A DNA stretch of 64,000 bases, from the NCBI GenBank assembly GCA_963555985.3, contig OY820591.1, forward strand, positions 2,464,001 through 2,528,000, given 5' to 3'. The first letter of the stretch is position 1. The number at the start of each line of letters is the position of its first letter. Positions 1,726 to 38,417 of this stretch are shown here, piece by piece. The notes beneath the pieces are model-generated. The model saw nothing but the letters and a program-made list of their open reading frames with translations. It did no database searches and was not told where the DNA came from. The stretch comes from Dehalococcoidia bacterium (GTDB lineage: Bacteria; Chloroflexota; Dehalococcoidia; Bin125). The position numbers and the translations under genes are program-made.

Positions 1726-3204
1726 TCAGTCGGGCTCAGCTTCGCTGCTGACGGAGCCCGGCCTCGTGTGCGTCAGTTTCAGGATTGGGCCGTTGAATGT
1801 GAGGATGTGAACTTCGCCCTCTGGGCCGTGGGCGAAACTCACGATCCGGGCGTCCAGATGGAGCACCTCCGTCATTGACCAGCCCGTCGCAGCGTCGGGA
1901 TCTTCCCACAAACCCCAGACTCGCCCGGAGCAGTAATCGGCGAAGAAGTACGGTGCAACTGCGCTCAGAATCGAGTCCCCGCCCGCCGCAGAGGTACGAT
2001 CCTTGCCTCGATAGACGACCCCGCCGGTGACCGAGCAGCCCTCGTCGTGGTTGTAGACCGCGACCGGCGGCACAGCCTCGAGTGCGTCGCAGCGATCCTG
2101 GCTGGCGAAGCAGCGGTCGCCCTCGAACACGCGCCAGCCCTGATTCGAGCCGGCTCCGACGATCGCGATCTCCTCGACCGCGTTCTGACCTACGTCGCCT
2201 ACCCAAAGCCGGCCGGTAGCGAGGTCGAACGACATTCGCCAGGGGTTGCGCAGGCCGTAGGCGTAGATCTCGGGCAAGACGCCCTCAACACCGACAAACG
2301 GGTTGTCAAGCGGGATGCGGTAGGGCTCTGCCGTGTCACTCCGGCTGACATCGAGGCGGATGATCGTGCCCAGCAGCGTTTCGGTGTTCTGTCCGTGTCC
2401 GTGAGGGTCATTCGCCGCGCCGCCGTCGCCGATGCCGAGATAGAGCATTCCGTCCGGCCCGAAGCGCACAGCGCCGCCGTTGTGGTTGGGGTACGGCTGA
2501 CCGATCTCAATGATCACCAGTTCCGATGCAGGTATCGCCGCGCCTTGCATGATCAAGAATCGCGACAGCCGTGAGCGTCCACCCTCACGCGGTGAGTAGT
2601 AGACGTAGAGATAGGGATCGGATTCGAACTGTGGATCGAGCGCAAAGCTCAGCAATCCCTCTTCCCCACCGAAGCGAACCGCATCGGTCAGATCGAGGAC
2701 GCCAAACTGTTCGACTCCATCCTCGGTCTCGACGAACCGTGTGATCGAACCGCGTTGCTCGGCGATCAGGAGCGAGCCGTCAGGCAGCGCGGCCAACTCT
2801 ATGGGTTGCTGGAATTGGTACTCGTCCAGGATCGGTTCCAGATCGAACGTGAACAGAAAGAGCGGAAACTCGCCCGGCGCAACGAACACACGGCCACTAC
2901 CGTCCGTGCTGATCTGCACCGTGGTGCGAATCTCTCCGCCCGATTGCTGCTCGTTCTCCGCCAGCCGTGATTGCTGCAAAGCCTGCTCGAACGCACCCTG
3001 CTGATCTTGATCAGCGGCCTCCTCGTCCCGACTCGCTCGAACTTCCTCCGAAGCCGGCTGCGCTGGCTGCGGCTGCTCCGATTGCGCCTGGGCTGCCACA
3101 GGAGCGGCTTGCTCTCTGCCGCTGGGCGTCTCCTCGCCGGAACAGGCTGCAAACAGCAAGAGGACGAGCGCGAACACAGCGCAGCTACGGATCGAACGGC
3201 TCAT
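1726..3204 (-). CDS. PQQ-dependent sugar (glucose/sorbosone) dehydrogenase-family lipoprotein
   Basis: Lipobox FAAC; motifs EEGLLS, NHNGG..FGPDGMLY..GDGG, AYGLRNPWR, GDVGQ. Confidence 0.9.
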   Translation of the reverse strand: MSRSIRSCAVFALVLLLFAACSGEETPSGREQAAPVAAQAQSEQPQPAQPASEEVRASRDEEAADQDQQGAFEQALQQSRLAENEQQSGGEIRTTVQISTDGSGRVFVAPGEFPLFLFTFDLEPILDEYQFQQPIELAALPDGSLLIAEQRGSITRFVETEDGVEQFGVLDLTDAVRFGGEEGLLSFALDPQFESDPYLYVYYSPREGGRSRLSRFLIMQGAAIPASELVIIEIGQPYPNHNGGAVRFGPDGMLYLGIGDGGAANDPHGHGQNTETLLGTIIRLDVSRSDTAEPYRIPLDNPFVGVEGVLPEIYAYGLRNPWRMSFDLATGRLWVGDVGQNAVEEIAIVGAGSNQGWRVFEGDRCFASQDRCDALEAVPPVAVYNHDEGCSVTGGVVYRGKDRTSAAGGDSILSAVAPYFFADYCSGRVWGLWEDPDAATGWSMTEVLHLDARIVSFAHGPEGEVHILTFNGPILKLTHTRPGSVSSEAEPD

Positions 3205-3607
3205 AGCGCAGGAGGGTGGTCTCGGTACCGGGCAGGTCGTCGAAGATTGGGCGGACTCTCATGCCAACCGTGATCGCGTCTTCTTCTACGTTGACCAGAG
3301 TTGAGGTCAGCCGGGGACCCTCGTCCAGTTCGACCACGGCGATGATCTGGGGTTCGTCGCCGGCGAAGTCGGGGGCGGTGGGACGGCGCGCGATCGTGTA
3401 GGTGTAGAGCGTGCCTTCCCCGGAGATTTCGCGCCACTCCAGGTCGTCTTCGAGAGTCAGCGGCGCGTGCGAGCGGGGATAGAAGACCCACTGATCGCTG
3501 GAGGGGGAGTACTGGATTTTGACCTTGCGCTCGCGCAGGCCGTCCCAGAAGGGTTGAGTGCGCGGGATCGGCGTGGGCAGCGGGCGATCGACCTGCGGGT
3601 CGGGCAT
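3185..3607 (-). CDS. DUF35 (rubredoxin-like/OB-fold) protein
   Basis: TQPFWDG, W...SGEGTLYTYT, VVELDEGPRL, VGMRV; coupled to the thiolase-like gene. Confidence 0.88.
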   Translation of the reverse strand: MPDPQVDRPLPTPIPRTQPFWDGLRERKVKIQYSPSSDQWVFYPRSHAPLTLEDDLEWREISGEGTLYTYTIARRPTAPDFAGDEPQIIAVVELDEGPRLTSTLVNVEEDAITVGMRVRPIFDDLPGTETTLLRYEPFDP

Positions 3608-17839: not shown

Positions 17840-20197
17840 ATGATGTCTGCACTTGTTCGCATTGCGGTGCGTGGGGCGGCTTTGCTTGGGCTGGCCTGCT
17901 TGCTTTGCGCCTGCATCTTCGGCGGCGAATCCGAACGCGATCTGACCGAGTACTTCCCCCAGGCCAGCGAAGAGGTCACCACCAGCGAGACTGAGCAAGA
18001 GACCGCGCAGGCCGCGGCCGACGACCAAGAGGGCGTCTACACGCCTCCGCCGGAAGAGCTCGAAGACCTCTCTCGCGCTCCGGCCAGCGCCCAGGAAGCT
18101 GTTCAACGCTTCTTCCACCTGCTCGCCAGCGGACACTTGCAGGAAGCCTGGTCCACCACATCGTTGGAGACCAAAGAACGGATCAGCGCCGAAGATTTCG
18201 AGCGCCGCTACCGCGATATCTGGGCTGAAGCGACGATCGGCGGCTTCAGCTGGGAGCTCGTGCCCAACGACGACATCAACGCGCCCTCCTACGAGGTCAT
18301 CCTGCGCTACCAGACGACCTTCTTCGGGGAGATCGAAGAGCGCGTACACGCCCCGACCCTGCGCCAGCCGCACTGGGTCGTGCACTGGACGCCGGACCTG
18401 ATCTTCGCCGGGCTTGGCCCCAGCGGTTACCTCGTTCGCGCGCAAGTCGAAATCCCCACGCGCGGACTGGTCCTCGATCGCAACGGGCTCGTGCTTGCGG
18501 GCGTCGCTGAGTTCGCGGTCGTGGGCGTCTACTGGGACGCGATCACGGATGAGGAGGCCGTGGTGAACTTCTTCATCGAGCGCTTGGAGATGGAGGAAGA
18601 GATCGTCCGCGCGCTCGTCTACCAGGATTTGCCCTCGTATCAGTTCATCCCCGTTGCGGAGCTGGAGATCGGCACTCCTGCGGAGACGATTGCAGAGTTC
18701 GAGCAGCTCGCTTCGATGGGCATTCTCGTTCGGCGCGAGACGCGGCGTCACTATCCCTACGGCGAGCTCGCCTCGCACGTGATCGGCTATCTCCAGGAGA
18801 TCAATCCGACCGAGCTGGAAGAGCTCTTCGTTGAGGGCTACCGCGCCGGCGACATGATCGGGCGCGACGGGATCGAACAGTCCTTTGAGCGCGCCCTGGC
18901 CGGACGGCGGGGCGGTCATCTGGTGATCATCGACCCCGAAGGCCGCCCGATCCGCGAGATCACCTACCGGCCCGCGATCGCGGGCAGCAACATCCGGCTC
19001 ACGCTCGATGTGCGCGTGCAGCAACTCGCCGAAGCGGCGCTGGGCGATCAACCGGGCGCGGTCGTCGCGCTTGATCCGCGCAACGGACATGTCCTCGCGA
19101 TGGCCTCCTATCCCCGGATCAACTCCAATCACATCGTCGACGGCGTCACCCAGGCGGAGTACGACCTCTACTTCACCGATGTGCGCCAGCCGTTCATCAA
19201 CCGCGCGGTCGAACAGGTCTATGCGCCCGGTTCGACCTTCAAGACGGTCACGCTCGCAGCGGCGCTGGAGGAAGGCGGCTACGAGATCTCCGACCGGCTC
19301 GGCTGTCCGACCACGTGGATGGAGGTGGGCGACCAGCCGCTGCACAACTGGAAAGACAGCGACCAGGGCCGGATCACGCTCGCCCAAGCGTTGGCCGAGT
19401 CCTGCAACACCGTGTTCTACGAAGTCGGCCTACAGCTCGACCGCCGGGATCCCGAAATCTTGCCGCGAGTGGCGCGCGGTTTCGGCTTTGGCGAGCGCAC
19501 GGGGATCATCGGGCTGAGCGAGGAGAGCGGCATTATCCCCGGCCCGGCCTGGAAGGCGACGGCGCTGAACGACGCCTGGTACACCGGCGATACGATCAAC
19601 ATGAGCATCGGACAGGGCTTCGTCGCCGTGACTCCGTTGCAGGTCTCGAACGCTTACGCCGCGCTCGCCACCAACGGCGTGATCGCGACGCCGATGATCA
19701 TCCAATCGATCGAACCCTCCGGCGCGCCGCCGCAGACGATTGAGCGCCGCACCACCAATTTGATTCCCGTCTCAGGCGACACGCTGGAAGAGTTGCAGGC
19801 CGCCCTGCGCACCACGATCAGCCGCCCCTACGGCACCGGTTTCTACCAGTTCGAGGGCACTGTGCTCCGCGCCGCGGGCAAGTCCGGTACCGCCGAAGAC
19901 CAGGTGATCGACCCGGAAACGATCGCGGACGTGGACGACGAGGAGGCAGAGCAGGCAGAGGACGAGCAGAGCGACACAGCACAGGAAGAGTCGGCGCAAG
20001 AGCAGCAGGAGCAACAGGAGTCGGCCGATCAGCCGCTCTACTCGACCCACGCCTGGTTCTCGGCCTGGGCCAACTACGACGAGCCGCGCCTGGTGGTGAC
20101 GGTGGTGCTCGACGACGGCGCGTCCGGCACCGACGACGCCGGGCCGATCGCGCGGCGGGTGCTGGAAGGCGCAATTCTCAATGACTGGGTACCCTGA
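17840..20197 (+). CDS. mrdA: Penicillin-binding protein 2 (class B) with N-terminal NTF2/MecA_N-like domain
   Basis: RG..LDRNG, R.YPYG, G..GIE, catalytic STFK, SCN, KSG; HAWF. Confidence 0.88.
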   Translation: MMSALVRIAVRGAALLGLACLLCACIFGGESERDLTEYFPQASEEVTTSETEQETAQAAADDQEGVYTPPPEELEDLSRAPASAQEAVQRFFHLLASGHLQEAWSTTSLETKERISAEDFERRYRDIWAEATIGGFSWELVPNDDINAPSYEVILRYQTTFFGEIEERVHAPTLRQPHWVVHWTPDLIFAGLGPSGYLVRAQVEIPTRGLVLDRNGLVLAGVAEFAVVGVYWDAITDEEAVVNFFIERLEMEEEIVRALVYQDLPSYQFIPVAELEIGTPAETIAEFEQLASMGILVRRETRRHYPYGELASHVIGYLQEINPTELEELFVEGYRAGDMIGRDGIEQSFERALAGRRGGHLVIIDPEGRPIREITYRPAIAGSNIRLTLDVRVQQLAEAALGDQPGAVVALDPRNGHVLAMASYPRINSNHIVDGVTQAEYDLYFTDVRQPFINRAVEQVYAPGSTFKTVTLAAALEEGGYEISDRLGCPTTWMEVGDQPLHNWKDSDQGRITLAQALAESCNTVFYEVGLQLDRRDPEILPRVARGFGFGERTGIIGLSEESGIIPGPAWKATALNDAWYTGDTINMSIGQGFVAVTPLQVSNAYAALATNGVIATPMIIQSIEPSGAPPQTIERRTTNLIPVSGDTLEELQAALRTTISRPYGTGFYQFEGTVLRAAGKSGTAEDQVIDPETIADVDDEEAEQAEDEQSDTAQEESAQEQQEQQESADQPLYSTHAWFSAWANYDEPRLVVTVVLDDGASGTDDAGPIARRVLEGAILNDWVP

Positions 20198-20201
20198 GCC
20201 G

Positions 20202-20633
20202 ATGCAGCGCTCACGCTTCCGCCGCCTCGTCCAGCAGGCGCTCGACGAAATCCCCGACGCGCTCTATGAGCGGATGGAGAACGTCGTCATCCTCGTTCGT
20301 AATCAGCCCACCGCCGAGGAACTCGAATCGGTCGGCCTCGGGCCGCGCCAGACCCTGCTCGGCCTCTACGTTGGGCGTCCGCTCACTTCGCGCGGTTGGT
20401 ACGGCGAGACCCTGCCCGATCGGATCATGATCTACCAGCAGCCGATCGAGTCGATCTGCCGGTCGGAGGCGGAAGTGGTGGAGCAGGTGCGCGAAACGGT
20501 GCTGCACGAAGTCGCGCACCACTTCGGGATCGACGACGATCGCCTGGACGAGATCGGGATCTCGCCGCCTCCCCGCGATCATGTCCGCGCCGCGATCAAC
20601 CTGAGCGAGCGCCGCCAGCCCTATCTCGAATAG
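20202..20633 (+). CDS. Zincin-like metallopeptidase (DUF1025)
   Basis: LLGLY.G.PLT.R, LPDRI.IY, HEVAHHFGIDD. Confidence 0.9.
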   Translation: MQRSRFRRLVQQALDEIPDALYERMENVVILVRNQPTAEELESVGLGPRQTLLGLYVGRPLTSRGWYGETLPDRIMIYQQPIESICRSEAEVVEQVRETVLHEVAHHFGIDDDRLDEIGISPPPRDHVRAAINLSERRQPYLE

Positions 20634-21739
20634 CGCCGCAAGAGCCGCTCGACCGCAGCTGGCACCAGCTCGTCGGCGCGTGACATCGCCTCTTCGAGCG
20701 GCATCCCCGGCGGGGTTGAGGCTTCGCTGGCGACCAAACCGGGCAGTTGGGCGGAGCCTTCGACCAAGCCGGCGACGGCGACGCAGGGGACATTCGCCGC
20801 CTGCGCCAGCGACGCGACCCCGGCGACCGTCTTGCCGTATGCGGACTGGGTATCGAGCCGCCCCTCGCCGGTGATCACGAGATCGGCGTCCGCGATCCGC
20901 TCGGCCAGCCGAACGGCCTCCGAGACGGCGGCGAAGCCGGATACCAGCGTTGCGCCGCAGCAGGCCAGCAGGCCGGCCGCGAGTCCGCCTGCGGCTCCCG
21001 CGCCGGGTATGTCGGCGACCTTTGCGCCCAGATCGCGCTCCAGCACCGCCGCGTAGTTTGCCAAGGCGCGATCCAGCTCGAGCACGCAGGTTGGATCGGC
21101 GCCCTTTTGCGGGCCGTAGACGGCGCTCGCGCCTTCGGGGCCCAGGAGCGGATTCTGGACGTCGCAGAGGACTTGGAGCTCGACCGAGGGCAGCCGCGGA
21201 TCGAGACCGCTGACGTCGATCCGCGCCAATGTGGCCAGCGCCGCCCCGCCGGGGGGCAGACGCCGGCCGCGCTCGTCGTAGCATTTCGCGCCCAGCGCTT
21301 CGGCTGCGCCGGCGCCGCCGTCGTTGGTGGCGCTGCCACCGACGCCGATCAGGATTCGCTCCACTCGGGCGTCGAGCGCGTGGGTGATCAGCTGTCCGAC
21401 GCCGTGCGTGCTCGTGCGGCGCGGGTCTAGCTGGTGCTGCGAGAGCAGGGTGAGACCGGCCGCGGCGGCCATTTCGATCACTGCGGTGCGGCCGTTATCG
21501 ATTCGTCCCCAGCGGGCGTCCACGGGCGCGCCCAGCGGCCCGTCTACGCGCGCGATTGAGGTGCGACCATTGGCGGCTCGCACCAGGGCGGCCACGGTGC
21601 CCGGGCCGCCGTCGGCGAGCGGGGCGCTGTCGATTTCGGCGTCGGGCCAGACCCTGAGTACGCCTTCGCGGATGCGTTCGGCGGCTTCCAGCGCGGTGAG
21701 GCTGCCCTTGAACTCTTGCGGCGCGATCAGCACTCGCAT
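20621..21739 (-). CDS. Glycerate kinase
   Basis: IAP..FKGSL, ADGG.GT, GGSATNDGG, YGPQKGA, TGEGRLD.QS..GK. Confidence 0.93.
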   Translation of the reverse strand: MRVLIAPQEFKGSLTALEAAERIREGVLRVWPDAEIDSAPLADGGPGTVAALVRAANGRTSIARVDGPLGAPVDARWGRIDNGRTAVIEMAAAAGLTLLSQHQLDPRRTSTHGVGQLITHALDARVERILIGVGGSATNDGGAGAAEALGAKCYDERGRRLPPGGAALATLARIDVSGLDPRLPSVELQVLCDVQNPLLGPEGASAVYGPQKGADPTCVLELDRALANYAAVLERDLGAKVADIPGAGAAGGLAAGLLACCGATLVSGFAAVSEAVRLAERIADADLVITGEGRLDTQSAYGKTVAGVASLAQAANVPCVAVAGLVEGSAQLPGLVASEASTPPGMPLEEAMSRADELVPAAVERLLRRYSR

Positions 21740-21742
21740 TGG

Positions 21743-21928
21743 TCAGTCGCCCGTGCCGATGCCCAGAATGCGCAGGATGCCGATGATCAGGATCGCCACT
21801 ACCGCGAGCAGAATCGCGAGCCGGATGCGGCGATAGACGGACAAGAGGTTGCCGAGGTTCAGCAGACCTCGCATGTAGAGCAGTGCGATCAGCACTGCGA
21901 TGACGACCAGACCGAGGATGATGCCCAC
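21743..21928 (-). CDS. Small two-TM membrane protein (about 61 aa)
   Basis: Two hydrophobic helices; GTG at 21928 lies 4 nt after the upstream stop; its stop lies 3 nt before glycerate kinase. Confidence 0.65.
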   Translation of the reverse strand: MGIILGLVVIAVLIALLYMRGLLNLGNLLSVYRRIRLAILLAVVAILIIGILRILGIGTGD

Positions 21929-21932
21929 AGCC

Positions 21933-22166
21933 CTATCGTACGCGCCGCCGCCGACTCTTCCCACGTGCTTCCGTTACAGCCTCGGGGCCAATCCGGTAGC
22001 CGCAGACCACGCAGACGCGCATTGCGCCGTGACCGCCCAGCGGACCGGCGCAATGCGGACAGACGCCGCTCTGCCGCCGGGGCTGTCCGCGCTCTGTCCG
22101 CCTGCGCGCGGCCGCGCCCAGAAACAGGGGCAACTGCGCTCCACGACTGATGGCCGGTTGCGACAT
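21933..22166 (-). CDS. Zinc-ribbon microprotein with QLPLF motif (77 aa)
   Basis: CPHC-x12-CVVCG ribbon; clear promoter directly upstream. Confidence 0.65.
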   Translation of the reverse strand: MSQPAISRGAQLPLFLGAAARRRTERGQPRRQSGVCPHCAGPLGGHGAMRVCVVCGYRIGPEAVTEARGKSRRRRVR

Positions 22167-22188
22167 GATCCCGCTCGTATTCGCTCGC

Positions 22189-22237
22189 GTACGTGCGTTC
22201 TGCCACTAAGGTAGGACGCTCGTGCGAACGTTGTCAA
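22189..22237 (-). promoter_or_regulatory. Sigma70-type promoter with SOS (LexA)-like box at the predicted start site
   Basis: TTGACA (22232-22237), 18-nt spacer, TACCTT (22208-22213); GAAC-GCAC-GTAC at 22189-22200; second TTGACA at 22256-22261. Confidence 0.65.
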
Positions 22238-22265
22238 GCGGAATCAGACCCGATGTGTCAAGTAG

Positions 22266-22397
22266 TTACTGTTGGTCTTCCGGCCGATCGAGCCAATCCA
22301 CGAAATCCTTCATTCGCTCGTTCAGCCGCTCGTAGCGCCCGCGATCGGCCGCGAAGAGAATCCCAATGAACAGAATGGCCAGGCCGATCTCCAACAT
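22266..22397 (-). CDS. 43-aa single-TM microprotein (below the track length cutoff)
   Basis: MLEIGLAILFIGILFAADRGRYERLNERMKDFVDWLDRPEDQQ*, preceded by GGGAGG RBS. Confidence 0.65.
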   Translation of the reverse strand: MLEIGLAILFIGILFAADRGRYERLNERMKDFVDWLDRPEDQQ

Positions 22398-22475
22398 CGT
22401 GCGCCTCCCGGACCTTGCGCCGGCATGATTGCGCCAATGCGACGCTTTCGCTCAGTATCGTAGAGCTTCCAGCTC

Positions 22476-23744
22476 ATGCCTAGTCCAACCAGACCACCGG
22501 TCGTCGCCGCGCTCACGCTCGGCTGCAAACTCAACCAGGCCGAGACGCAGCAGGCTGCGCGCGAGTTGCAGCGCCATGGCTGCGTGACGGTCGACCGCCC
22601 CAGCCGCGCCGACGCTTATCTGATCAATACCTGCACGATCACGCACGTCGCTGATCGCAAGGCGCGGCGTTTGATCCGGCTGGCGCAGAAGCTCTCGCCG
22701 GAGGCGCCGGTGATCGTCACGGGCTGTTATGCAGAACGCGACGGGGCTGCGCTTGCGCGGGACTTGAACGTGCGGGTTGTCGGCAATGCTGACAAGTCCA
22801 CCGCCGCTCGGAGCGTGCTGGACGCCCTCAGAGAGGTGTCGCTACCGGCGGCTGCTACGGAATCGCCAAGTTCGAGCGGACGCACGCGCGCCTTCCTCAA
22901 GATCCAGGAAGGCTGCGACGACGTCTGCGCGTTTTGCATCGTCCCCTACGTGCGCGGACGCGAACGCGCCCTGCCGATTCCTGAGATTGTCTCGCAAGCG
23001 CGGGAACGGGTGACGGAAGGCGTGCGAGAGCTCGTGCTCACCGGTACGCAGCCGGGCGCATATGGACGCGACCGCGACGACGGCGCGTCGGCTGCGCGCC
23101 TGATTGAAGCGCTGCTGGCAGAGACCGACGCGCCCCGCATTCGCTACTCCTCGATTCAGCCGCAGGACATCACGCCTGAGTTGCTCGCCTGCTGGGAGGA
23201 CGCGCGCATGTGCCGTCACTTCCACCTTGCGCTCCAGAGCGGGTCGGATCCGGTGCTGCGACGGATGCGACGCCGTTACAGCGCCGCCCAGTTCGAGCAG
23301 GCGGTCGCGCAGATTCGCACCGCCGTGCCGGGCGCGTCGATCACGACCGACATCATCGCCGGCTTCCCGGGCGAAACCGAGGCCGATCACGACGCCACCA
23401 TCGCGCTGATGGAGCGGGTGCGTTTCGCCGATGTGCATGTCTTCCCCTATTCGTCGCGGCCCAACACCTCGGCTTCACTGCTTCCCGACGATGTACCGCC
23501 GCCGCTCAAGCGCGAACGCGCCGCCCAGCTTCGGGCACTCGGACACGAGCACACACAGCAGTGGCGCAGCGCACAGATCGGGCACACGGCGCCGGTGTTG
23601 TTTGAGACCGACGATCGTGGTCTCAGCGACACCTATCTTCCCGTTCGCGCCGCCGAGAGCGCGGCGCGAGTGAACCGGATCATCCCCGTCCACATTGGCG
23701 CCCTGGACGACGACAGCCTCGAGCTGATCGGCGAGACCGCCTGA
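22476..23744 (+). CDS. mtaB: tRNA methylthiotransferase MtaB (radical SAM)
   Basis: TLGCKLNQAE, INTCTIT, KIQEGC..C.FC, LQSGS, HVFPYS.R. Confidence 0.85.
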   Translation: MPSPTRPPVVAALTLGCKLNQAETQQAARELQRHGCVTVDRPSRADAYLINTCTITHVADRKARRLIRLAQKLSPEAPVIVTGCYAERDGAALARDLNVRVVGNADKSTAARSVLDALREVSLPAAATESPSSSGRTRAFLKIQEGCDDVCAFCIVPYVRGRERALPIPEIVSQARERVTEGVRELVLTGTQPGAYGRDRDDGASAARLIEALLAETDAPRIRYSSIQPQDITPELLACWEDARMCRHFHLALQSGSDPVLRRMRRRYSAAQFEQAVAQIRTAVPGASITTDIIAGFPGETEADHDATIALMERVRFADVHVFPYSSRPNTSASLLPDDVPPPLKRERAAQLRALGHEHTQQWRSAQIGHTAPVLFETDDRGLSDTYLPVRAAESAARVNRIIPVHIGALDDDSLELIGETA

Positions 23745-23749
23745 ACCTC

Positions 23750-24040
23750 ATGGTCATTACCGTCTTGCGCATCGAGTTGACGATCTTCGAGTCCGCCTCG
23801 CTCAAGGACAAGCGGGCGGTGGTGCGCCGCGTGCTCGACCGTGTGCGGAACAAGTTTCCGGTCGCCGCCTCCGAAGTCGGGCGGCAGGACGACCCCGCCT
23901 ACGCAACGCTCGCCTTCGCTGCGCTCTCCTCGGACGGGAAGATCTCGCACGCTACCGCTCAGAAGGTGCTCGCCTTCATTGAGGGTTTGCATATTGATGC
24001 GGAGATCACGGAGGTGGAGACGGAGTCGATCCAGCTCTGA
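23750..24040 (+). CDS. DUF503 (YlxP) family protein
   Basis: SLKDKR.VV......R.KF.V..SEV..QD. Confidence 0.88.
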   Translation: MVITVLRIELTIFESASLKDKRAVVRRVLDRVRNKFPVAASEVGRQDDPAYATLAFAALSSDGKISHATAQKVLAFIEGLHIDAEITEVETESIQL

Positions 24041-24051
24041 AAACCCCCGAC

Positions 24052-24221
24052 TTCCGTCATACCCGCGCTTGTCGCGGGTATCTCGATGTGAGCAGCATGG
24101 AGCTCATGCACGGAGCGAGCGGTTTGGGAGAGGGTTTCCTCAGATTCAAACGACGGTGCAGCACTCGGCGAGATTCCCGCGGCGGAGCGCGGGAATGACG
24201 GAGAATGTTGCGGGTATGACG
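24052..24221. repeat. Family-B REP-like hairpin pair in inverted orientation
   Basis: CCGTCATACCCGCG..CGCGGGTATCTCG and CGAGATTCCCGCG..CGCGGGAATGACGG between convergent genes. Confidence 0.82.
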
Positions 24222-24252
24222 ATCGAGTATTGGACGTCAATCTGAACAGGCC

Positions 24253-25542
24253 CTAGCCGACTGGTTCGCCCCAGAGATCGTGACCCAGCGCTTGCGTGAT
24301 CCGCACGCTCGGCATTGAGCCCGGGTTGGCGACACCGGCGCTCAACACCAGCCCGTCCACCTCCGGCGCTTCGCGGTAGCTGCGCCCGGCGAAGATCGGC
24401 GTACCGTCATCGGCGGTCTGACCGGGCTCCGACTCGACCAGGACGGCCAACTCGCGTCCGACCTGCGCTTGGTTGTGTTCGGCGGCGATCTGGCCCAGCT
24501 CGCGCATCAGGCGCTCGTGGCGGCGCTGTTTCACCCGTTCCGAAACCTGTCCGCCCATCTTGGCGGCCGGCGTGCCCTCTTGCGGTGAATAGACGAACGC
24601 TCCGGCGCGATCGAACCGCACTGCACGTACGAAATCCAGCAACTCCCGGAATTCCGCCTTGGTTTCGCCCGGGAAACCGACGATGAAGGTCGTGCGCAGG
24701 GCCAAATCGGGCATTGCTTCGCGCAGACGCTCCAGCGTTCCCCGCACCATCGAGATGTTGTGCGGACGTTTCATCCGCCTGAGCACGCTCGGCGATCCGT
24801 GCTGGAGGGGAATATCGAGGTAGTTGCAGACCTGGGGCGTCTGCGCCATCACCTCGATCAGGCTGGGGGTGACGAAGCCGGGATAGGCGTACATCAGCCG
24901 CAGCCAGGCCGCGCCCGACTCCGCTGCCAGACGCTCCAACAATCGCGCCAATCCGTCGGCGTCGCCCCATTCGGAGCCGTAGGAGGTGCTGTCCTGCGCG
25001 ACGAGCACCAGTTCACGCGCGCCGCGAGCCGTCAGTTCACGCGCTTCGGCGACGATCGAATCGGGCGCCGCGCTGCGAAACTGGCGGCCCTTGATCGCGG
25101 GGATGTTGCAGAACGTGCAGGGACGCGCGCAGCCGTCGGAGATCTTGAGGTAGGCCGACGGTCCGACCGTGCCCGTCGCCGCAGTCGAGGCGGGGATATC
25201 CCGCTCCACCGGACCGGCGGCGGCTGCGATCTCGTCCCAGGCCTCGATCCCGAAGGTTGCGTCGATCCCGTCGATCTCAATTACCTGTTCGCGCTCGATC
25301 TGAGACCAACAGCCGACCACGAACAACTGCTGATCGGCTCGCTGTTCAGCAGCGAGAATTTCAGCCGCCTCAGCCGATTCCCGCTTCGCCTCGTCGATGA
25401 ACCCGCAGGTATTCAGGATCACGAGATCGGCGTCGAAGCGATCCGCGGTGAGTCGATGCCCGGCCGCCTCCAGCGCGCCTGCGATCCGAGTCGAATCGGT
25501 GGTGTTCTTGGGACAGCCGAGCGTGACCAGGTGATAGCGCAT
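24253..25542 (-). CDS. rimO: Ribosomal protein S12 methylthiotransferase RimO
   Basis: LGCPKN..DS, NTCGFI..AK.ES, YLKISDGC...C.FC.IP, Y.DIPLQH, APEVDG. Confidence 0.93.
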   Translation of the reverse strand: MRYHLVTLGCPKNTTDSTRIAGALEAAGHRLTADRFDADLVILNTCGFIDEAKRESAEAAEILAAEQRADQQLFVVGCWSQIEREQVIEIDGIDATFGIEAWDEIAAAAGPVERDIPASTAATGTVGPSAYLKISDGCARPCTFCNIPAIKGRQFRSAAPDSIVAEARELTARGARELVLVAQDSTSYGSEWGDADGLARLLERLAAESGAAWLRLMYAYPGFVTPSLIEVMAQTPQVCNYLDIPLQHGSPSVLRRMKRPHNISMVRGTLERLREAMPDLALRTTFIVGFPGETKAEFRELLDFVRAVRFDRAGAFVYSPQEGTPAAKMGGQVSERVKQRRHERLMRELGQIAAEHNQAQVGRELAVLVESEPGQTADDGTPIFAGRSYREAPEVDGLVLSAGVANPGSMPSVRITQALGHDLWGEPVG

Positions 25543-37538: not shown

Positions 37539-38417
37539 ATGACCACCCTCAACGACTATCCCGCCTCCCAGATCTACTTCTCCCAGCGACTGCGGCTGCA
37601 CTACGTGGATTGGGGCAATCCCAGCGCTCCGCCGCTGATCCTGGTTCACGGCGGGCGCGATCACTGCCGCTCCTGGGATTGGGTCGCGCTGGCCCTGCGC
37701 GACCGCTACCACGTGATCGCGCCCGACCTGCGCGGTCACGGCGACTCGCAGTGGGTCAACGGCTCCGGCTACGCCATGATCGATTACGTCTACGACCTGG
37801 CCCAACTGGTGCGGCAGAAGCATCTCGCGCCCGTGACCTTGCTTGGCCACTCGCTGGGCGGGCGCATCTGCATCGAATACGCCGGCATCTACCCCGATCG
37901 CGTCAGCCGCTTGATCGCGATCGAGGGCCTGGGGCCTTCGCGTTCGCAAACGGACGAACACTCGAACACCCCGGCGCATCGGCGGATGGCGGACTGGATC
38001 GGCTCGATTCACCGCTTCGCCGGACGCCTGCCCCGCCGCTATCCGACCCTCGAGGATGCGGTCGATCGAATGCGCGAAGCCAACCCCCGGCTCTCGCCGG
38101 AACAGGCGCTGCATCTCACCACCCACGCCGTCAACCAGAACGAGGACGGCACCTACATCTGGAAGTTCGACAACTACGCCCGCTCGCACTCGCCCTATCC
38201 CTTCAACGAGGACGACGCCGAGGAGATCTGGCAGCGGGTGCGGATGCCGACCCTGCTGATCAGCGGCTTGGAATCCGCCGGAGACCCGAACAAAGACGAA
38301 CGAACCAAGTCCTTCCCCCACGCGCAGCGGGTCGGAGTCGCCAACGCCGGCCACTGGGTGCATCACGACCAGCTCGATCTGTTCCTCGATCACGTCGAGC
38401 ACTTCCTGATCCAATAG
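37539..38417 (+). CDS. Alpha/beta hydrolase
   Basis: LVHGG, DLRGHGDS, GHSLGG nucleophile elbow, AGHWVHHD. Confidence 0.92.
   Translation: MTTLNDYPASQIYFSQRLRLHYVDWGNPSAPPLILVHGGRDHCRSWDWVALALRDRYHVIAPDLRGHGDSQWVNGSGYAMIDYVYDLAQLVRQKHLAPVTLLGHSLGGRICIEYAGIYPDRVSRLIAIEGLGPSRSQTDEHSNTPAHRRMADWIGSIHRFAGRLPRRYPTLEDAVDRMREANPRLSPEQALHLTTHAVNQNEDGTYIWKFDNYARSHSPYPFNEDDAEEIWQRVRMPTLLISGLESAGDPNKDERTKSFPHAQRVGVANAGHWVHHDQLDLFLDHVEHFLIQ

Follow-up and report, generated by a model that had tools for sequence, protein, structure and literature searches.

Which protein is made from a promoter that carries a LexA-type palindrome at its predicted start site, and what might this protein do after DNA damage? 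These are the questions raised by a small locus in the genome of a Dehalococcoidia bacterium (Chloroflexota, Bin125; NCBI GenBank assembly GCA_963555985.3). The locus lies within a stretch of 64,000 nucleotides (nt) of contig OY820591.1 (positions 2,464,001 to 2,528,000), here called the window, and its central element is ORF77, an open reading frame (ORF) of 77 amino acids on the minus strand. To our knowledge, the SOS regulons of bacteria other than the models have hardly been charted, and most of their lineage-specific members are small proteins whose action is unknown. The original prediction, made from the DNA of the window, put ORF77 forward as a candidate SOS-induced zinc-ribbon microprotein that would bind the sliding clamp DnaN. 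The reading that we favor, which as a whole remains tentative, is that ORF77 would be a LexA-repressed, damage-induced small protein that docks on the clamp and belongs to a single family (f1) of the class Dehalococcoidia. Its parts differ in strength, and the coding, regulatory and zinc-ribbon parts are firmer than the clamp part.

The source genome is 3.33 Mb long with a G+C content of 65% and is assembled in 11 contigs. The closest named relatives of its glycerate kinase gene glxK, which is located downstream of ORF77, are found in metagenome-assembled genomes labelled Chloroflexota or Dehalococcoidia (73–77% identity); a search for such named relatives with ORF77 itself found none. The DNA was matched by four sequencing runs of one study, and no RNA run was among the matches listed. 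A six-frame search of 60 relatives with the single protein as query revealed ORF77-like frames in 21 relatives of family f1 at E values from 6.5e-13 to 9.9e-4; weaker matches were mostly noise. Five proteins of the window were also compared by tblastn with 23 oriented loci, including the own locus, and matches were found for orf43 in 23, glxK in 22, mtaB and ORF77 in 21 each and orf73 in 16 of these loci. The two loci lacking a tblastn match for ORF77 were those of genus g9, and both were recovered by the six-frame search. All matched loci shared the order mtaB (divergent)/orf43-ORF77-orf73-glxK. The 22 syntenic orthologs of family f1 were aligned (alignment A1). Nine columns of this alignment (R8, Q11, C36, C39, G41, P42, C52, C55 and G56) were invariant, and the linker was variable. 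The ratios of non-synonymous to synonymous differences per site (pN/pS) for three ortholog pairs of equal length were 0.22, 0.38 and 0.37, and in a fourth pair, whose members are near-identical, all three differences were synonymous. Shine-Dalgarno-like GGAG or GAGG sequences precede the ATG in many orthologs. Conservation of the ORF among relatives, which was among the checks named with the original prediction, was thus borne out by syntenic orthologs, invariant cysteines and pN/pS of 0.22–0.38. By these in silico results, ORF77 is almost certainly a real, selected coding gene.

The gene appears to be confined to its lineage. Among 201 genomes sampled across the class, near-full-length matches (i.e., from profile positions 1–3 through 66–73) in short frames were found only in family f1, where 8 of the 9 genomes had them, and the matches outside f1 mostly covered the ribbon alone or were located inside long unrelated frames. 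A search of 5.8 billion proteins with the profile returned 34 clusters, none of which was functionally named and one of which was labelled "hypothetical protein." When 1.84 billion representatives were searched with the profile, 46 proteins were found at E ≤0.001, including 12 at E ≤1e-10. The nearest clusters in the ESM Atlas were also unnamed hypothetical proteins. The best Pfam match of ORF77 was zinc_ribbon_16 (17.3 bits vs. a cut-off of 27), and the best NCBIfam match reached 13.6 bits vs. a cut-off of 120. Among the papers listed in literature searches, none dealt with an SOS-induced small zinc-ribbon protein with a clamp motif, and nothing relevant was found for the zinc-finger protein ZifS of Thermus. 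The statement of the original prediction that no known family could be assigned therefore stands, given the sub-threshold Pfam and NCBIfam matches and the lack of a named homolog. Judged by these sequence comparisons, ORF77 is lineage-restricted and belongs to no described family.

The palindrome GAACGCACGTAC at the predicted start site of ORF77 is of the type GAAC-N4-GT[AT]C. The related motif GAAC-N4-GTTC is reportedly the LexA motif of Chloroflexus. It is also the LexA motif of Bacillus subtilis and Mycobacterium tuberculosis (PMC3323433). The source genome has one lexA (G000:C1:182577-183206) and one recA. Among the relatives, 23 of the 30 stretches (260 nt) upstream of lexA contained an exact G[AT]AC-N4-G[TA][AT]C box, mostly in the form AGAAC-N4-GTTCC and just past a TTGACA…TAnnnT promoter. 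Five of the 7 stretches without an exact box were located inside an N-terminal extension of the frame. The recA gene of the source genome has the promoter TTGACA-17-TACATT, with GTACATTCGTTC (GTAC-N4-GTTC type) positioned over the -10, and the 29 recA upstream stretches included 16 with an exact box and 13 with a box of one mismatch. Upstream of ORF77 (130 nt, n = 22), exact boxes were found in 11, one-mismatch boxes in 10 and a two-mismatch box in one of the orthologs. The corresponding numbers for dnaN of the same genomes (n = 20) were 0 exact, 2 with one mismatch and 18 with two or more, and shuffled sequences (n = 4400) gave 0.5% exact and 10.4% one-mismatch boxes. It should be noted that the orthologs counted come from related genomes and are not independent, and that locus L005 was left out because L004 encodes the identical protein.

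The place of the box is fixed in all genera, where it abuts the -10 inside the promoter spacer. A second box at the start site is found in genus g7 (GAAC-N4-GTAC or a one-mismatch variant) and in the source genome. The spacer copy of the source genome, GCACGAGCGTCC, lines up with boxes that are exact (GTAC-N4-GTAC or GAAC-N4-GTTC) in genera g7, g8 and g3 and has itself decayed to two mismatches to G[AT]AC-N4-GT[AT]C. Further comparison revealed genus-specific one-mismatch variants that are common to ORF77 and recA, namely GCACTCACGTTC in g8 and GAACGCATGTGC in g9. Genus g10 (L280) has kept orf73-glxK and lacks orf43, ORF77 and the palindrome; given that ORF77 and the palindrome are missing together, the operator belongs to ORF77. 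Two points raised earlier about the box were borne out. It is conserved across relatives (21 of 22 orthologs with at most one mismatch, compared with 2 of 20 dnaN stretches and ∼11% of the shuffles), and it is of the LexA type of the host clade, as the same type is found at the lexA genes of relatives and at the own recA and co-varies by genus with recA. ORF77 is therefore likely, with considerable confidence, to be repressed by LexA through this predicted operator.

The protein itself was examined in a set of 46 distinct sequences, which comprised the 22 of A1 and 25 of the 46 representatives from the profile search, with one duplicate removed; the 25 were chosen by eye and were mostly short single-stretch matches. 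A CxxC…CxxC pattern was found in all 46. The AlphaFold2 model of ORF77 had a mean predicted local distance difference test score (pLDDT) of 69.6. Its residues 1–30 had block means of 52–70, and no secondary structure was predicted before residue 43. The ribbon was modeled as two hairpins with block means of 77–90, including strands 43–46 and 49–52, and the C-terminal tail was modeled as helical with low confidence. A Foldseek search of the PDB with this model yielded generic zinc ribbons only, with a best E value of 0.21. Given the four cysteines that are invariant in the 22 orthologs and the hairpins predicted with pLDDT of 77–90, the CPHC-x12-CVVC ribbon of the original prediction is upheld, and ORF77 very probably carries a C4 zinc ribbon.

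The N-terminal peptide is the candidate link to the clamp. In 43 of the 46 sequences, Q[LV]x[LFM] precedes the ribbon, usually in the form R-x-x-Q-L-x-L-x-hydrophobic; position 6 is L, I, M, V, F, A or C in 37 sequences, and Arg is found at -3 in 39. In ORF77, this motif (QLPLF/QLPLFL, residues 11–16) is located in the region without predicted structure and matches the clamp-binding consensus of QLxLF or QLxLxL (PMC4564189). The own DinB carries QLSLF, and the host clamp is therefore served by ordinary motifs. DnaN (own gene at G000:C1:170375-171511) is well conserved in family f1. Three runs of complex prediction with DnaN (alignment A2, 20 rows) and residues 1–32 of ORF77 (A1) gave values of 0.46, 0.51 and 0.50, compared with 0.00, 0.34 and 0.00 for the controls; they did not exceed each control by the required 0.20, and the result speaks neither for nor against docking. 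The original prediction had counted three independent signals. Two of these, the operator and the ribbon, are solid, and the third, the clamp motif, is suggestive, being short, matched by chance in other host proteins and missing in genus g5. The conservation of QLPLF that was looked for earlier is seen, as the broader Q[LV]x[LFM], in the 43 sequences just mentioned, and the motif is lacking in the three g5 loci. Taken together, the motif points weakly to docking of the N-terminal peptide on DnaN, which we regard as possible but somewhat short of probable.

If the peptide does dock, the following sequence of events could be envisaged. In an undamaged cell, LexA would be bound to one or two GAAC-N4-GT[AT]C operators situated on either side of the -10 and over the transcription start. 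Once the cell is damaged, LexA would cleave itself under stimulation by RecA, the promoter would become free, and ORF77 would be made, probably together with orf73 and glxK. The disordered N-terminal peptide R-x-x-Q-L-x-L-x-hydrophobic would then dock in the hydrophobic cleft of DnaN, like QLSLPL of Hda and QLPLWG of ImuB, and the C4 ribbon would serve, with the Arg-rich tail, to hold on to DNA or to another partner. As a net effect, the clamps at damaged forks would be occupied, with ORF77 acting as a replicase brake or as an adaptor. A more elaborate version, which we consider unlikely, is that ORF77 would be a stand-alone damage-induced clamp blocker, a counterpart of p21 that pauses the replicase or gates DinB, and that orf73 would hold back division, so that the two would form a two-armed SOS checkpoint.

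Several observations count against the clamp as the target. Of the 43 sequences with the motif, 6 have a non-hydrophobic residue at position 6. Such motifs also arise by chance, and QLxLx[LIMFV] or QLxLF is found near a terminus (i.e., ≤25 residues from the N terminus or ≤16 from the C terminus) in 10 of the 3168 crude ORFs of the genome. One of these 10, an α/β-hydrolase ORF at 37539–38417 of the window (plus strand; G000:C1:2501539-2502417), has QLDLFL 15 residues before its C terminus, and this is probably such a chance look-alike and an unlikely clamp partner. The invariant Arg at -3 does not belong to the published consensus and could indicate a different partner. The three loci of genus g5 (L281–L283) have a perfect GAAC-N4-GTTC box that abuts TATACT or TATAAT and have kept orf73, and the small ORF behind the box no longer has the Gln-Leu motif or the first Cys.

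These observations bear on the strongest competing explanation, in which ORF77 is controlled by LexA and its peptide binds a partner other than the clamp, such as orf73, the division machinery, RecA or RNA polymerase, and in which the ribbon may simply bind nucleic acid. Small SOS membrane proteins act as division checkpoints in other bacteria, and ORF77 is tightly coupled to orf73, a conserved gene with two predicted membrane helices; if the two proteins paired, an SOS checkpoint on division would result. The Arg at -3, the chance QLxL motifs in the host proteome and the g5 variant, which retains the box and orf73 and not the motif, fit this explanation as well. So do the nearest ribbon folds, which are ribosomal and RNA-polymerase zinc ribbons, none of them significant. 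However, neither ORF77 nor orf73 has homology to a known division inhibitor or RecA modulator in Pfam and NCBIfam, and the motif is not known to fit another bacterial docking peptide as well as it fits the clamp consensus. We therefore regard a non-clamp partner as a serious prospect that nonetheless falls clearly short of an even chance.

A second alternative is that the palindrome is the operator of a repressor other than LexA and that the gene stands outside the DNA-damage response. On the regulatory side, most of what speaks against LexA control of ORF77 concerns the spread of the box. Exact G[AT]AC-N4-GT[AT]C was found 92 times in the 3.33-Mb genome, and 58 of these sites were outside crude gene calls that cover 87% of the genome DNA. 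The box is thus enriched outside genes and precedes varied genes. A single exact box is therefore not rare genome-wide, and the box of ORF77 is significant because it is conserved among orthologs. Exact boxes also stand before dnaX, ogt, comM, yebC and a DinB_2-family gene, and they precede genes for a thioredoxin, an ammonium transporter and a HigB-like toxin, which have no obvious SOS role; in the last case, the own antitoxin of the toxin gene could bind such a palindrome. In addition, several AGTAC-N4-GTACT palindromes are found before unrelated genes. This spread points either to a broader regulon or to several regulators that recognize similar sites. When the genome was scored with a 20-nt matrix that includes the flanks and was built from the lexA sites of relatives only, a flank-heavy and over-fitted matrix, the box of ORF77 was outside the best 70 of the 79 positions above 9 bits. 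No G[AT]AC-N4-GT[AT]C box with at most one mismatch was found in the 330 nt upstream of the own lexA or, likewise, in the 330 nt upstream of the own dinB, and the -10 of ORF77, TACCTT, is weak. Against a repressor other than LexA, however, stand the same box with the same genus variants at recA, its occurrence at the lexA genes of relatives and its location across the -10 and the start, which is typical of LexA operators. A non-LexA repressor is thus improbable.

Other repeated or palindromic elements were noticed during this survey. Upstream of the own lexA (L001, G000:C1:181077-184706), a 22-nt near-palindrome, CAACGTGTTCTAGAATACGTTG, is found instead of the box, and a similar core, GTGTTCTAG, is located upstream of a comM-like gene. 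A longer motif, CACAGAAC…GTAC, was considered as the operator and rejected, as it is derived from a repeat family of ∼370 nt. This family has ∼10 copies, in which a G/C-rich hairpin is followed by GAAC-N4-GTAC, then by TATATAGT-like bases and then by short direct repeats (CTGGAC…). Copies are found, for example, at C1:2723300-2724150, 831150-832000, 2700-3500 and 1553150-1554000 (L287–L290), and none was seen in the window. The family has no match in Rfam, and it inflates the counts of LexA-like boxes (∼10 of 92).

A third alternative would make ORF77 a free-standing zinc tail of the B12-dependent ribonucleotide reductase with a role in redox or dNTP supply after damage. In its favor are a weak NCBIfam match between residues 23–57 of ORF77 and the last 40 model positions (E 0.14, 10.4 bits) and the own NrdJ, which ends in C-x2-C…C-x2-C. 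The match of 10.4 bits is, however, far below the cut-off of 961, BLASTP of ORF77 with the 90-residue tail of NrdJ gave an E value of 0.22 at 24% identity, the resemblance is no more than that of any zinc ribbon, and the N-terminal motif and basic tail have no counterpart there. This reading was set aside as unsupported and is very improbable. That ORF77 is a chance ORF, as the many overlapping ORFs in this GC-rich DNA might suggest, is contradicted by the synteny, the invariant cysteines, pN/pS well below 1 and the ribosome-binding sites of the orthologs, and is extremely improbable.

How the favored reading, a LexA-repressed protein that would dock on DnaN, relates to known systems can be judged by comparison. 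Pol II, Pol IV and Pol V belong to the SOS regulon of Escherichia coli. SOS translesion polymerases, including these three and the own DinB with its QLSLF, resemble what is proposed for ORF77 in that they gain access to the clamp through QLxLF or QLxLxL (PMC4564189). They are enzymes, whereas ORF77 lacks a catalytic domain. ImuB of the mycobacterial ImuA'-ImuB-DnaE2 mutasome is a damage-inducible, non-catalytic hub that docks on the β-clamp via QLPLWG (PMC10421592), and QLPL is common to this motif and to QLPLFL of ORF77. In contrast to the 77-residue ORF77, which has a zinc ribbon and no polymerase fold, ImuB is a large homolog of the Y-family polymerases that bridges DnaE2. A search of the source genome for IMS-domain genes (PF00817) found one, which is DinB. 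In Hda, 6-QLSLPL-11 is located in a flexible N-terminal loop, and Leu7, Leu9, Pro10 and Leu11 fill the cleft (PMC5397184). Hda differs in that it has an AAA+ domain and acts on DnaA, and no LexA control of Hda is described there; ORF77 has neither that domain nor homology to Hda. By analogy, ORF77 would act like the Hda or ImuB peptide fused to a basic zinc ribbon, and it is a member of neither family. SulA, YneA, SidA and DidA are small damage-induced proteins that stop division via the divisome and not via the clamp, YabA, which is also small, binds zinc and contacts DnaN, and the eukaryotic p21 is damage-induced and blocks PCNA via a docking peptide. No sequence relation between any of these and ORF77 was detected with Pfam and NCBIfam. 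The regulatory part is ordinary, i.e., an operator of the Gram-positive LexA type placed on a new target.

For this regulatory half, the support is as strong as comparative genomics can give. Should the peptide dock on DnaN, ORF77 would be a non-enzymatic SOS effector that acts directly on the replication clamp and a natural ligand of the clamp cleft from an uncultured marine or sponge-type lineage of Chloroflexota. If ORF77 blocks the clamp and orf73 serves as a division arm, the two would form a checkpoint module that has not been described in bacteria. If the peptide does not dock, the family would still mark an undescribed DNA-damage gene pair that consists of a zinc ribbon and a small membrane protein.

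The features of the locus are listed in Table 1. On re-reading of the minus strand, all coordinates of the original prediction (promoter, box, ORF, QLPLF, ribbon and basic tail) were found to be correct.

Table 1. Predicted features of the ORF77 locus, numbered from the first nucleotide of the window.
Feature	Position	Strand	Basis or remark
-35 hexamer TTGACA	22232..22237	minus	Sequence; TTGACA-like hexamers at the equivalent place in orthologous loci
Degenerate first operator GCACGAGCGTCC	22214..22225	minus	In promoter spacer, abutting the -10
-10 hexamer TACCTT, weak	22208..22213	minus	Sequence; TAnnnT in orthologs after a 17-nt spacer
Predicted LexA-type operator GAACGCACGTAC	22189..22200	minus	At predicted transcription start; 7 bases after the -10
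ORF77, 77 amino acids	21933..22166 including stop	minus	ATG at 22166, stop at 21935-21933
QLPLFL, residues 11-16, after invariant R8	22119..22136	minus	Candidate clamp-binding motif (QLPLF = residues 11-15, 22122-22136)
C4 zinc ribbon CPHC-x12-CVVC (C36/C39/C52/C55), predicted	22002..22061	minus	Invariant columns; G41, P42 and G56 also invariant
orf73, two predicted membrane helices	21743..21964	minus	tblastn match downstream of ORF77 in 16/23 loci
glxK, glycerate kinase	20621..21739	minus	Pfam Gly_kinase, E 1.1e-136; downstream in 22/23 loci
orf43, 43-amino-acid single-helix membrane protein	22266..22397	minus	tblastn match in 23/23 loci

The spacer between TTGACA and TACCTT is 18 nt in the source genome. 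A consensus promoter scan of positions 20400–22700 called no promoter, since TACCTT agrees with TATAAT in just 3 of the 6 bases. Terminator-like sites were likewise not found in this region, and positions 20000–24500 had no match in Rfam. In ORF77, an Arg-rich linker lies between QLPLF and the ribbon, and the protein ends in the tail RGKSRRRRVR. The end of ORF77 and the 5' part of orf73 share 32 nt, and orf73 has an alternative GTG start at 21931, 2 nt past the ORF77 stop; glxK starts 3 nt beyond the orf73 stop, and the gene after glxK is convergent. Given these overlaps and 3-nt gaps, the lack of terminator-like sites and the conserved order, co-transcription of ORF77 with the two-helix gene orf73 and glxK, which was suggested earlier, is plausible. 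The tight packing of the genes and the convergent orientation of the next gene make damage-induced read-through into glxK likely, in addition to any input from the orf43 promoter.

No Pfam or NCBIfam family was found for orf43 or orf73, and homology of orf73 to a described SOS division-inhibitor family was likewise not found in these two databases. As a small membrane protein under an SOS-type promoter that is translationally coupled to ORF77, orf73 recalls division inhibitors. The orf43 gene, whose protein sequence ends in …DWLDRPEDQQ, is located directly upstream of the ORF77 promoter and is divergent from mtaB.

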